NCBI GenBank assembly: GCA_001786955.1
Contig: MFUM01000004.1
Span: forward strand, 4,457 to 68,456
DNA length: 64,000 bases
Source of the DNA: Candidatus Nomurabacteria bacterium RIFCSPHIGHO2_12_FULL_42_19
GTDB taxonomy: Bacteria > Patescibacteriota > Minisyncoccia > Phycocordibacterales > UBA9973
Direction: 5' to 3'
Shown: positions 36,292-38,391 of the stretch, one piece after another
Numbering within the stretch: position 1 is the stretch's first letter
Layout of the letters: every line of letters begins with the position of its first letter
Program-made: the position numbers and the translations under genes
The notes under the pieces: generated by a model
Database searches by the model: none
The model's input: only the letters and a program-made list of their open reading frames with translations
Told to the model about the DNA's origin: nothing

Positions 36292-38391
36292 CTAGATATC
36301 AATCTCCGCTAATTTTGCATTTGATTGGATGAAAGATTTGCGGGGAGGGACTTCGGAGCCCATGAGGATGTCAAAGATTTTATTCGCTTCCTCTGCATCA
36401 GAAATATCCACGCGCTTGAGAACGCGATGTGCGGGATCCATCGTCGTCTCCCAGAGTTCTTCCGGATTCATTTCACCGAGACCTTTGAAACGCTGGATAT
36501 GTATTTTGTTAGGTTTAGCCCCGACGTTCTCCTCAGGAGAAGTCGGAGTCCCGACCCCTTCAGGCGTCGGGAGTTCTTCCACTTCCTGTATTTCACTCAC
36601 GTCCGCGTTCTTGCCGACAATTTTTATTTTTTCATTATCGGTGTATGCGTAAGAAATCTCTTTCCCCTTTTTTATTTTATAGAGTGGTGGCTGGGCAATA
36701 TAAATATACCCGGCATCAATCACTTGCCTGAAATATCTGTAGAAAAGAGTCAGAAGCAATGTACGGATATGTGAACCGTCCACGTCGGCATCGGTCGCAA
36801 TAATTATTTTATGATAACGAATTTTCTCCAGGTCAAAAGTATCCCCGATAGATGTGCCCATCGCAATAACTAAAGATTTAACTTCTTTGGAAGCAAGCAT
36901 CTTATCTATGCGCGCGCGCTCCACATTTAAAATTTTTCCGCGTAGTGGCAATATCGCCTGGGTGCGGCGGTCCCGTCCTTGTTTTGCCGAACCGCCTGCC
37001 GAGTCTCCTTCCACTAAGAATAATTCCGATTCTGAAGCATTTTTGCTTTGGCAGTCTGCCAATTTTCCGGGCAAAGTCATCCCCTCAAGCGCACCCTTGC
37101 GAAGCACTGAATCCTTGGCTGCCTTGGCCGCTTTGCGGGCCTTTAGGGCCAGAATTGACTTGTTTATTATAGATTTGGCGTCATCCGGGTTTTCTTCCAG
37201 AAAGTTCGCGAATCCCTCGCCGAATACGGTCGCCACGGCGCCCTGAGCTTCCATGCTTCCCAATTTTCCCTTGGTCTGCCCTTCAAATTGTATCTCGCGA
37301 AGCTTGACCGAAATAACTACCGTCAAACCTTCCAGGACATCTTCGCCCGTAAATCCGCCTTCGGACTCTTTCATCATTTCATTTTTCTTACAGTAGGTGT
37401 TGAGCGTTCTGGTAAGCGCCGTCTTAAAACCGGTTACATGCGTCCCGCCCTCCTGGGTGAAAATATTGTTGGCGAAAGGGAAAATCCTGTCCACGATATC
37501 ATCCACATACTGCAGGGCTATCTCTACTCCCACGCCATCCAGTTCTCTTTCAATATAAAAAATATTATTCTGGACCGGTTTGACAAATTTATTGTAATAC
37601 TTTACCAGAGAAATCAGTCCGCCTTCAAAATAGAAAGCAACAGAGGGAAGCTCAAGCCCAAGTTCGCGGAAATAAAATACATCCTCGTCATTGAGCCCCT
37701 TTTTATCGTCCCAGCCGCGGGCGTCAATTATTAAAATCTTCAATCCTTTCACCAAATAGGCTTGTTGGCGAATGTGGCTGATGACCGTGTTCCAGTCAAA
37801 TACAATCTTACCAAAAATTTCCTGGTCGGGCTCAAAAGTAATTATGGTTCCGTGCATCTTTGATGCCCCGTTTTTTTTTACAGCGAACTTTTTCTTGCCT
37901 TTAGAATATTCTTGAATATATTTTCCGCCATCCCTATGCACTTCCGCCTTGCAATAGATGGAAAGCGCGTTTACCACCGATGCGCCGACTCCGTGTAAGC
38001 CTCCGGAAACTTTATACCCGCTATTTTCGCCGCCGAATTTTCCTCCGGCATGCAGCGTCGTCATCACGGTTTCCAGCGCGGAAACTTTTGTTTTTTTATG
38101 CATATCCACCGGAACGCCCCGGCCGTTGTCCGCCACGCGAATACGGTTGCCCGGAAGAAAAACAATTTCAATGTCATTGCAAAAACCTCCCATCGCCTCA
38201 TCGCGGGAATTGTCAAAAATCTCCCATATTAAATGATGAAGCCCTTCCGGCCCTGTAGTGCCAATATACATGCCTGGACGGCGCCTGACGGGCTCCAGGC
38301 CCTCTAGAACGGATATGTCAGAGGCATCATAATGGTGCCCTTTTTCGGCACCTTTTTTTGCTCCTTTTTCGTCTTTTCCTCCCTTTGCCAT
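36292..38391 (-). CDS. gyrB: DNA gyrase subunit B
   Basis: GHKL ATPase, TOPRIM ([18 protein letters not shown]) and the C-terminal [21 protein letters not shown] motif. Confidence 0.97.
36519..36573. repeat. family F nested hairpin element, in frame in gyrB
   Basis: CCCCGACGttCTCCTCAGGAGAAGTCGGAGTCCCGACCCcttcaggCGTCGGGAG. gyrB peptide [19 protein letters not shown]. Confidence 0.7.

Follow-up and report, generated by a model that had tools for sequence, protein, structure and literature searches.

Palindromic repeats termed RPE, about 100-150 bp long, are confined to Rickettsia according to the account of Ogata et al. (2000, Science) relayed in PMC10969869. Among other bacterial repeats, REPINs are almost wholly extragenic, with 14 of 1,067 16-mers overlapping genes in SBW25, and vertical inheritance within one lineage is the main route by which REPIN-RAYT systems are passed on (PMC3116915, PMC3337134). 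The mobility of mitochondrial GC clusters has been proposed to depend on endonucleases of other mobile elements in the same genome (PMC4478555), and sponge mtDNA also has hairpin elements (PMC2800124). In phage T4, tRNA-region DNA is the target of SegB, which spreads through break repair (PMC13096335, PMC2988022).

We analysed a hairpin sequence in the gyrB gene of a Candidatus Nomurabacteria genome, within a window of 64 kb (the whole stretch of DNA under study). It is probably one copy of a palindromic element that is small, selfish and mobile. This element, hereafter E, is made of two adjacent and nearly mirror-image GC-rich hairpins. We interpret E as selfish mobile DNA, behaving like the RPEs of Rickettsia and the GC clusters of mitochondria. 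Like the RPEs, in so far as the relayed account describes them, E is a selfish palindrome of a small AT-rich genome, found in frame in unrelated essential genes as well as in spacers, adding a short peptide at tolerated sites and distributed patchily among relatives. E is set apart by its length of 38-74 nt, its two hairpins and its hosts, Patescibacteria and Omnitrophota, a distinction drawn from the description of the RPEs; moreover, the same account reports no link of RPEs to tRNA genes or GIY-YIG nucleases, unlike what we describe below for E.

Yeast mitochondrial GC clusters and the double-hairpin elements of Allomyces, as outlined in PMC4478555 and in Paquin, Laforest and Lang (2000) cited there, are also GC-rich, 30-80 nt long and present in the spacers and genes of AT-rich compact genomes, and they share with E an AG as the flanking target (PMC4478555). 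However, these elements are organellar and E is bacterial, yeast GC clusters duplicate the AG target whereas E shows no duplication (PMC4478555), and their proposed partner is an intron-encoded endonuclease instead of a free-standing GIY-YIG gene located in tRNA genes. With REP, BIME and REPIN sequences, E has in common short imperfect palindromes arranged as an inverted doublet, a non-autonomous nature, and conserved arms with a variable spacer kept paired by compensatory changes (PMC3116915, PMC3337134). In contrast to the extragenic REPINs, 42% of the E copies among the matches listed lie within open reading frames; RAYT genes are flanked by their repeats, whereas none was found near E in the loci examined; and the exact 17-nt core of E is common to two phyla, unlike the vertically inherited REPIN-RAYT systems. 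Finally, E resembles IS200/IS605-derived (PATE-like) elements in its insertion 3' of a short motif with no target-site duplication. A full-length parent with tnpA (Y1) and/or tnpB between E hairpins was not found in the loci examined, as judged from the 25 commonest Pfam families of the neighbours and from a regular expression.

The two copies of E in the window

The gyrB gene (36292..38391, minus strand) encodes a protein of 699 aa that is 100% identical to GyrB of Candidatus Nomurabacteria bacterium GW2011_GWC2_41_8. Its copy of E occupies positions 36519..36572 (54 nt, or 18 codons), with the canonical orientation on the plus strand and thus antisense to gyrB, whose own strand reads it as a stretch of 19 residues; the 5' flank of E is TTTAG. 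In hairpin 1 (36519..36548, plus strand), the basal arms CCCCGAC and GTCGGAG are mismatched at a single C.A, a G is bulged, and the apex is extended by 6 bp (TTCTCC-TCA-GGAGAA). Hairpin 2 (36549..36572, plus strand) has the basal arms TCCCGAC and GTCGGGA, the loop region CCCTTCAGG and a C preceding the 3' arm. The 3' arm of hairpin 1 and the 5' arm of hairpin 2 together make up the exact 17-mer AGTCGGAGTCCCGACCC (36541..36557, plus strand), which is the most conserved portion of the family. The R1 covariance model gave this copy 44.6 bits (E-value 8e-9) on the plus strand and 26.5 bits on the minus strand. The GC content of E is 63-67%, as compared with 41% for the 64-kb window.

The gyrB copy folds better than its shuffles on both strands, with -30.9 kcal/mol (z -3.5) on the plus strand and -36.1 kcal/mol (z -4.6) on the mRNA strand. 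The sequence-only reading had described this hairpin sequence correctly; the outer stem that it drew around two small hairpins was not recovered, the minimum-energy fold being two adjacent hairpins, CCGAC..GUCGG followed by UCCCGAC..GUCGGGA. Because the four arms of E are nearly identical, a nested pairing of arms 1-4 and 2-3, with CCCGACG/CGTCGGG outside and GTCGG/CCGAC inside, is a possible alternative.

That the 17-mer AGTCGGAGTCCCGACCC is shared with an intergenic spacer was confirmed: it occurs exactly twice in the window, at 36541-36557 on the plus strand and 12139-12155 on the minus strand, and no match to it was obtained in 100 dinucleotide-preserving shuffles of the window, even with 2 mismatches (chance expectation 0). 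A covariance model of the family, run over the 64 kb with filters off, detected no copies beyond 36519-36572 (plus) and 12126-12166 (minus). The intergenic copy (12126..12166, minus strand) is a minimal form of 41 nt with loops TAA and GAGAG, whose arms contain two G.T wobbles (CCCCGATG, CGTTGGGA); it scored 54.5 bits with R1 (E-value 3.5e-11), and its folding z-scores against shuffles were -3.6 and -2.8 on the two strands. It sits in a divergent spacer, 19 nt upstream of a DUF378 start codon, and the flanking genes are PF04070 and DsbA-like. The two copies are indeed, as had been noticed, opposite in orientation relative to local transcription, the gyrB copy being antisense and the spacer copy having the same sense as the DUF378 gene (11814-12107, minus strand). 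We considered the spacer copy as a conserved 5'-UTR element of DUF378 and rejected this idea, as no DUF378 homologue adjoins any other E copy. The sole match in a promoter and terminator scan of the spacer was a weak terminator-like one within hairpin 2.

Architecture and spread of the E family

E belongs to a previously undescribed family of double-hairpin repeats that is dispersed through the genomes of Patescibacteria and Omnitrophota; in the open-access literature searched, neither palindromic repeats nor GIY-YIG/tRNA cassettes are described for Patescibacteria. Patescibacteria genomes are among the smallest and most streamlined known, yet selfish palindromic DNA thrives in them. The family consensus is YAG^CTCCGAC-G-[loop]-A-GTCGGAG for hairpin 1, directly followed by TCCCGAC-C-[loop]-C-GTCGGGA for hairpin 2, and the 17-mer is the junction of the two. 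Hairpin 2 is approximately the reverse complement of hairpin 1 (AGCTCCGACG versus ARTCCCGACG), forming an inverted doublet. The core of 16-17 nt is nearly invariant across the family, an invariance that arises partly by construction because most members were retrieved by a pattern that fixes the core. In 17 members of the same layout, 96.8% of the cells of hairpin 1 were paired and 6 pairs had changed on both sides, which none of 500 shuffles equalled. The long loops of E fold better than shuffles, and some copies are nested within the loops of other copies. Arm mismatches on the canonical strand, counted from arm-variant tallies, amounted to 13 G.T and 10 C.A; these numbers are about equal and therefore point neither to a single active strand nor to an RNA form. 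A conserved base, an extrahelical base and a variable tip give E some resemblance to integron attC. In integrons, folded attC sites with RYYYAAC/GTTRRRY cores separate the cassettes of an array that adjoins an integron integrase, whereas E is single or located in tRNA remnants and does not lie between cassettes.

In 596 Gb of species genomes, the full two-hairpin architecture was present in 15 of the 42 matches to the 17-mer. The 15 E-bearing species genomes are all low-GC, 14 being labelled Patescibacteria or Omnitrophota and one only 'bacterium' (an unclassified MAG), and the remaining 27 matches fall mostly in high-GC genomes, consistent with an estimate of ~69 chance matches. A metagenome scan, for which the query was the 5' two-thirds of E only, returned at least 118 contigs, and 118 matches there also had the unsearched 3' arm CGTCGGGA. 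Altogether, at least 123 distinct copies exist outside the window, in other genomes and in metagenomes, with the 17-mer as their core. The hairpin is thus, as the sequence-only reading proposed, a member of a dispersed repeat family that entered gyrB; as an amendment to that reading, the family is not confined to this genome, being spread over two phyla. The presence of the exact 17-mer in two phyla of the same groundwater points to exchange between them. The 17-mer was absent from the viral contigs searched, and there is therefore no sign of a phage vector. With Rfam 15 at gathering thresholds, three tRNAs alone passed in the window and nothing matched E; at permissive thresholds the best weak matches on the two copies of the window had E-values of at least 0.17 and scores far below the gathering ones.

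Copies of E within genes and in the GyrB linker

Among the matches listed, 52 of 123 unique copies (42%) lie within open frames of at least 150 aa, 33 in the sense and 19 in the antisense orientation; their host ORFs, about 40 in number, are unrelated to one another, and E is read there in several frames. Coding sequences that carry E include those of gyrase, of ribosomal proteins (S11, S16, L23), of AlaRS and other aminoacyl-tRNA synthetases, of transcription factors (NusA/B/G, sigma-70), and also of FtsK, SSB and IF-2. The 17-mer is translated as SESRP, VGVPT, RSPD or SGLRL in other proteins and is also present in non-coding DNA; the stems stay paired through compensatory changes even when the encoded residues change. 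Again among the matches listed, the length of E is a multiple of three in 35 of 45 ORF copies versus 22 of 58 intergenic copies, and the 5' flank follows a YAG consensus, with G at -1 in 77 of 103 copies and A at -2 in 67 of 103. The C-terminus of a NusB-NUDIX protein offers a clean 42-nt in-frame polymorphism, in which L044, L081, L122 and L151 have the filled site and the window and L046-L049 the empty one. Exact junctions were found at TAG^CTCAG, in tRNA remnants, and at ATTATTAG^T. No target-site duplication appeared in any comparison of filled and empty sites.

In GyrB, E lies in the hypervariable, acidic linker between PPLYK and QRFKGLGEM, a known insertion site that corresponds to the 170-aa insertion point of E. 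coli. The 20-25 residues that the hairpin was first said to add are borne out by comparison with minimal GyrBs (47 residues in the query, 24 in S. pneumoniae GyrB 4z2c) and disappear against close orthologues: in 120 of 120 (86-91% identity), the segment has an equal length with or without the hairpin, 69-80 aa versus 74 in the query. E-free orthologues carry an unstructured Glu-rich linker of the same length, and most orthologues use such an unrelated linker; therefore, gyrB does not present a clean insertion. The behaviour of the family elsewhere suggests that E was nevertheless inserted into gyrB. The E-free linkers might conceivably be decayed copies of E, although no more than scattered similarity emerged when the window was set against L044 and L047 codon by codon.

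The same gyrB site carries E in L043 and L046 and a decayed form in L045. In L043 and L046, hairpin 2 of the gyrB copy has exchanged a T-A pair for C-G, a compensatory change, and compensatory stem changes in gyrB copies alter residues (LPT..VGT versus APT..VGV). The E linker is found on at least four separate GyrB backbones, scattered among E-free relatives. Outside the linker, the query is 94% identical to its nearest E-free relatives, P0046 and P0073 are 96-97% identical to theirs, and the value for P0099/P0120 is 92%. P0046 and P0073 have near-identical E linkers on backbones that are only 89.5% identical. Hence the hairpin-bearing form of the GyrB linker is not ancestral, as the nearest relatives of each of these backbones are without E, nor is the 17-mer unique to the two loci of the window. 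Linker folding ranges from -14 to -26 kcal/mol in the nearest E-free relatives versus -41 to -47 kcal/mol in the E-bearing ones. An AlphaFold2 model of GyrB was uninformative on the linker, with a mean pLDDT of 40 because the alignment, of 36 orthologues, was too shallow.

The patchy occurrence of E on the GyrB tree together with the constant linker length would be best explained if the segment was replaced laterally, through gene conversion or recombination, or if E re-inserted repeatedly and deletions compensated for its length. The gyrB copy probably has no gyrase-specific role. It may have persisted because it landed as a multiple of three bases in a flexible acidic linker, presumably the sole place in GyrB that tolerates large insertions, where its codons would read as a harmless Pro/Thr/Gly/Val-rich peptide. 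E can be regarded as a source of new linker peptides in protein evolution. It also matters for annotation and assembly, as many contigs carrying E are short and its inserts inflate apparent divergence in markers such as gyrB.

tRNA-embedded GIY-YIG genes and the proposed mobility of E

E is associated with GIY-YIG nuclease genes. GIY-YIG is the commonest Pfam family near intergenic copies (7 of 92 neighbours among the matches listed) and the sole gene regularly adjoining E in the loci examined. These genes, of 86-110 aa and chromosomal in CPR bacteria, overlap the 5' end of a tRNA gene and are preceded by a displaced tRNA 5' fragment, which E splits at TAG^CTCAG. Moreover, all four GIY-YIG homologues that were fetched without reference to E had an E-type hairpin 5-25 nt upstream, within the tRNA 5' fragment. 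E is about 20-fold denser beside these small tRNA-embedded genes: the 23.2 kb of GIY-anchored loci contained 14 copies, whereas the 120.9 kb anchored on gyrB had 3 and the 64-kb window had 2. The associated GIY-YIG subfamily is absent from the window, where the only GIY-YIG gene, at 62152-62391, is a distant one. The orientation of E relative to the nuclease gene varies (~8 same, 3 opposite), which fits independent targeting of tRNA-like remnants as well as membership of a cassette.

We infer that E is mobilised by this candidate nuclease. The most likely motor would be a break made by the GIY-YIG nuclease after AG in DNA resembling the D-arm of a tRNA, into which E would then be copied. A more specific scenario, which we offer tentatively, is that E is the non-autonomous partner of undescribed Patescibacteria/Omnitrophota cassettes: the GIY-YIG gene would invade a tRNA gene, restore the tRNA with its own 5' part and leave the displaced fragment, while breaks made off target would let E enter gyrB and other essential genes in frame. 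If so, minimal genomes would receive a steady supply of new protein inserts of 13-25 residues. SegB of phage T4 is comparable, as a small GIY-YIG gene among or against tRNA genes (PMC13096335, PMC2988022). However, SegB is a phage protein of ~220 aa with a DNA-binding domain, whereas the genes associated with E are shorter, chromosomal and preceded by the tRNA fragment that E splits. The link to tRNA-embedded GIY-YIG genes provides a testable mobilisation route for hairpin repeats, a question that also arises for RPEs and mitochondrial GC clusters.

Alternatively, E could be moved by a single-strand HUH/Y1 transposase, RAYT or IS200/IS605 TnpA acting in trans, with a preference for the AG-rich tRNA remnants left by GIY-YIG cassettes, so that the association with the nuclease would be incidental; we hold this to be unlikely. 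Exact insertion 3' of a short motif without duplication is the signature of peel-and-paste transposition (IS608/ISDra2), and E inserts exactly 3' of YAG with no target duplication. Its two hairpins are of the subterminal type, in which the base and a bulged nucleotide are conserved and the tip varies, its halves are mutually inverted as in REPINs (PMC3116915), and its orientation relative to GIY-YIG is not fixed. However, Y1_Tnp is not among the 25 commonest Pfam families of the 92 neighbours, a regular expression applied to the 3,754 ORFs of E-bearing loci totalling 1.28 Mb detected none with an HUH motif (a weak negative), REPs lie outside genes as opposed to the 42% of E copies in ORFs among the matches listed, and the 10 C.A and 13 G.T arm mismatches lack single-strand polarity.

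It is far less probable that the hairpin has been selected to act in cis on gyrB, whether as an mRNA element affecting translation, pausing or stability or as a site of DNA folding or gyrase binding like those reported for E. coli REP/BIME. In three gyrB lineages, compensatory changes have preserved the hairpins although amino acids changed as a result, and the mRNA strand folds strongly (-36.1 kcal/mol, z -4.6); yet E is also present in spacers and in some 40 ORFs unrelated to one another, in either orientation and several frames, the nearest GyrB relatives of the query (94%) and of P0046 and P0073 (96-97%) have neither E nor a comparable structure, and no Rfam family matches. Hardly credible, in our view, is a protein-level feature in which a flexible Pro/Thr/Gly/Val linker motif (PT..VG..PT..VG) was selected for GyrB and the palindrome is a by-product of codons. 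Although the peptide pattern recurs in several GyrBs and in the L7/L12 hinge of L168, a locus of the complete CPR genome CP066687.1, both sites being flexible linkers, the conserved unit is DNA, since the 17-mer is read in different frames and proteins and is present in non-coding DNA, stem partners change together while residues change, and most orthologues have an unrelated Glu-rich linker. By analogy with the roles proposed for REPs, E might have a role at the level of the host.

Further GC-rich palindromes of this genome, located in ThrRS and PheT, are in-frame insertions specific to the window.

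A palindromic element and its family

The double-hairpin element studied here, termed E, occurs twice in the window (about 41% G+C), within gyrB at 36519-36572 (+), where the + strand reads GCCCCGACGTTCTCCTCAGGAGAAGTCGGAGTCCCGACCCCTTCAGGCGTCGGGAG, and in a spacer at 12126-12166 (-). The sequence-only reading had reported an exact 17-mer common to the two copies, and AGTCGGAGTCCCGACCC is indeed found exactly twice, at 36541-36557 (+) and 12139-12155 (-); it was matched in none of 100 shuffles, with two mismatches permitted. Both copies folded significantly better than shuffled sequence (z -2.8 to -4.6). 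The predicted fold, however, consists of two adjacent hairpins, and the nested hairpin originally described is possible only as an alternative pairing, because the four arms (CCGAC, GTCGG, CCGAC, GTCGG) are nearly identical. The finding itself is real, and the interpretation given to the gyrB hairpin was essentially right.

A scan for the 17-mer covered one genome per species (596 Gb) and returned 42 matches, where by our own arithmetic about 69 are expected by chance. Twenty-seven matches, mostly in high-GC genomes, had no further similarity to E, and 15 displayed its full architecture, (Y)AG ^ CTCCGAC-G-[loop 1]-A-GTCGGAG | TCCCGAC-C-[loop 2]-C-GTCGGGA. Fourteen of these 15 genomes are labelled Patescibacteria (Parcubacteria, Taylor-, Wolfe- and Saccharibacteria) or Omnitrophota, and one (L011) only 'bacterium'. 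We then scanned metagenomes with CCGACG, a gap and a 16-mer, leaving the 3' arm unspecified. At least 118 stretches were retrieved, and among the matches listed 118 proved to have this arm (CGTCGGGA) as well. After duplicate removal, at least 123 distinct copies of 38-74 nt remained. Loop length varies: some loops are short (TAA; GAAG, AAAG, TAAAAG), others are extended by further perfect stems such as G-TTCNNN-NNN-NNNGAA, and the longer ones fold better than shuffles. Additional CCGAC hairpins, or a palindrome of another family, are present in some loops and indicate nested insertion. In the 17 copies laid out like that of gyrB, pairing holds in 96.8% of cells and six pairs have changed on both sides, values that none of 500 shuffles reached. 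Rfam holds no family matching E, and the viral collection no copy of the 17-mer.

Host genes and the gyrB linker

E behaves as selfish mobile DNA. Fifty-two of the 123 listed copies (42%) occupy open frames of 150 aa or longer, 33 in sense and 19 in antisense, and are spread over about 40 unrelated host ORFs. Pfam assigns these hosts to ribosomal proteins S11, S16 and L23, AlaRS, a class I aaRS, GatA, MraW, FtsK, SSB, IF-2, NusA, NusB, NusG, GrpE, SMC and sigma-70, among others; in a complete Giovannonibacteria genome (L168, CP066687.1; 1865-2236), one copy contributes to the flexible L7/L12 hinge (AAPTLAVGAPTPEDVGAK). Of the ORF copies, 35 of 45 have a length that is a multiple of three, vs 22 of 58 among spacer copies; this shows that copies within ORFs undergo translation and are filtered by reading-frame selection. 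Depending on frame and strand, the same DNA yields APT..VG, SESRP, RSPD or SGLRL, so that conservation concerns the DNA and not a peptide. Filled and empty sites can be compared cleanly at the C-terminus of a NusB-NUDIX protein, where a 42-nt in-frame element follows ATTATTAG in four genomes and the site is empty in five, including the window; no target duplication is present at this filled/empty site. Copies are typically preceded by YAG: of 103, 77 have G at -1 and 67 have A at -2. The gyrB copy is preceded by TTTAG.

The gyrB ORF, at 36292-38391 (-), encodes 699 aa, 100% identical to GyrB of Candidatus Nomurabacteria bacterium GW2011_GWC2_41_8. Comparison with solved structures places E in the interval from the conserved PPLYK block to the conserved QRYKGLGEM block, which are separated by 47 residues in this protein and 24 in S. 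pneumoniae, E. coli having a large insertion domain. E had been said to lengthen the protein, but relative to close relatives it did not, since the segment measures 69-80 residues in all 120 orthologues and 74 in the window. This segment is a hypervariable, mostly Glu-rich linker. When the gyrB DNA of seven orthologues was compared, two (L043, encoding P0099, and L046, encoding P0073) carried the same E, with position and orientation unchanged, one (L045) a decayed version, and four (L044, L047, L048 and L049) no comparable structure (-14 to -26 vs -41 to -47 kcal/mol over the same span). Among the three intact copies, stem partners changed together, from T-A to C-G at the base of hairpin 2 and from C-G to U-A inside it, altering the encoded LPT..VGT to APT..VGV. 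The L046 GyrB (10001-13378) reaches 1,125 aa owing to an intein (PF14890), besides its E-type linker.

The E-bearing linker is not ancestral, as the nearest relatives of the backbones that carry it are devoid of E. This holds for the closest GyrBs to that of the window (94.2% identity outside the linker) and for the nearest relatives (96-97%) of P0046 and P0073, two orthologues whose E-encoded linkers are almost the same although their backbones share only 89.5% identity; another separate group with E comprises P0099 and P0120. This scatter implies either four or more arrivals of the linker with E or its transfer between lineages as a patch. The survival of the gyrB copy is best explained by its being a stop-free multiple of three bases in a flexible, insertion-tolerant linker.

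tRNA genes, GIY-YIG nucleases and possible mobilisation

A tRNA gene lies within 600 nt of 32 of the 123 listed copies and within 70 nt of about 19, where we estimate about 1.5 at typical tRNA density. The usual layout is a tRNA 5' fragment split by E, a 15-45-nt spacer or small ORF, and an intact tRNA; the split falls exactly at G10/C11 (TAG^CTCAG), behind CTCAG^ or within the anticodon loop. The small ORF, 86-110 aa long, encodes a GIY-YIG nuclease (PF01541, E 1e-12 to 1e-15) and comes directly after E at seven loci (L002, L051, L059, L062, L078, L080 and L165). GIY-YIG is also the commonest family (7) among the 92 neighbours of intergenic copies; two LAGLIDADG endonucleases suggest that these regions hold other homing-type nucleases, and four neighbours are peptidoglycan-binding-domain proteins. 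Four nuclease homologues, collected independently of E by protein search, all had a tRNA 5' fragment bearing a double hairpin of the E type, 5-25 nt ahead of the start codon, and an intact tRNA starting at or just after the stop codon, which in L168 and L174 is a TAG forming tRNA positions 8-10. The covariance model of the family counts 14 copies in 23.2 kb of GIY-anchored loci, 3 in 120.9 kb of gyrB-anchored loci and 2 in the 64-kb window; six surround the L168 nuclease gene within 6.3 kb. Orientation relative to the nuclease gene varies (about 8 same, 3 opposite).

How might E move? Our leading candidate, held tentatively, is that the GIY-YIG nuclease would mobilise E by break-and-copy; it leads because E clusters tightly around tRNA-embedded GIY-YIG genes, a pattern confirmed independently. 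Alternatively, E may simply target the AG-rich tRNA remnants that the GIY-YIG cassettes create. The exact, duplication-free insertion of two hairpins after a short motif also recalls, by analogy, HUH single-strand transposition; neither Pfam assignment of E neighbours nor a motif search of E-bearing loci revealed an HUH/Y1 transposase. Among known systems, the GC clusters of yeast mitochondria and the double-hairpin elements of Allomyces resemble E in their AG flank, in their double hairpin and in a proposed dependence on endonucleases of other mobile elements (PMC4478555), whereas E is bacterial and makes no AG duplication. In behaviour, the nearest bacterial parallel is the Rickettsia palindromic elements, in-frame selfish palindromes in essential genes (PMC10969869), but E is shorter, differently built and found in other phyla. 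REPINs have the same inverted-doublet design (PMC3116915); unlike them, E is not confined to extragenic DNA, and no RAYT was found in its neighbours or loci. E belongs with those kinds of selfish palindromic DNA that invade coding sequence as well. We found no description of this family, or of tRNA-embedded GIY-YIG cassettes in Patescibacteria, in the open-access literature; the association between the two is unexpected and testable.

At L165 (8772-9202), L168 (2922-3327), L174 (2909-3330), L177 (2931-3481), L182 (2936-3460), L059 (2846-3284) and L109, a displaced tRNA 5' fragment is followed by the small GIY-YIG nuclease ORF and an intact tRNA starting at or inside its stop codon, and in some by the 3' half of the old tRNA or a near-complete old tRNA. 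From its layout, the arrangement looks like a tRNA-targeting homing cassette bringing its own replacement for the displaced tRNA part. The window has an 80-aa GIY-YIG gene at 62152-62391 (-) (PF01541, E 4e-12), distant from the E-associated subfamily and 85 nt downstream of a tRNA (62477-62563, -), with CCTTCGG/GCGAAGG-type palindromes between them. The tRNA at 44452-44536 has its first ~27 nt duplicated 85 nt upstream, at 44366-44392, and this copy is followed by a degenerate anticodon-arm piece, the kind of remnant seen at GIY-YIG loci, here with neither nuclease gene nor E. In L050 (~7100-7330), an intact tRNA-Arg between 15-bp inverted repeats (tgttcaataaattta / taaatttattgaaca) is nested in an older split tRNA-Arg, whose 5' and 3' parts lie on either side.

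Other palindromes in the window

A second palindrome family (CCTGCCTGCGCAGGCAGG) is present at 8603-8643, 49556-49588 and, within ThrRS, 35106-35140, where it adds six residues (LPAQAG) missing in four orthologues; elsewhere it splits a tRNA remnant (L114) and fills the loop of an E copy (L009). In PheT (phenylalanyl-tRNA synthetase beta subunit; 38413-40269, -), GC-rich palindromic stretches at 39983-40022 and 39252-39280 match in-frame insertions (6 and 11 residues) that are specific to the window and likewise missing in four orthologues. A perfect 32-nt inverted repeat (ATAAGGAGGGGGCAGGGGGTGGTAATTCAAAA) occurs at 25798-25829 and 40782-40813, 15 kb apart, and is related to a three-copy family (CCCCGACCCCTCTCCTTATCAAGGAGAGG) whose coordinates also include 33083-33111; together they are probably another dispersed palindrome family. 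Finally, a 64-nt direct repeat (45578-45641 and 46226-46289; 91% identical, 648 nt apart) contains a GC-rich hairpin of its own (CCCACCCGGTACCCCGGGAAGGG).
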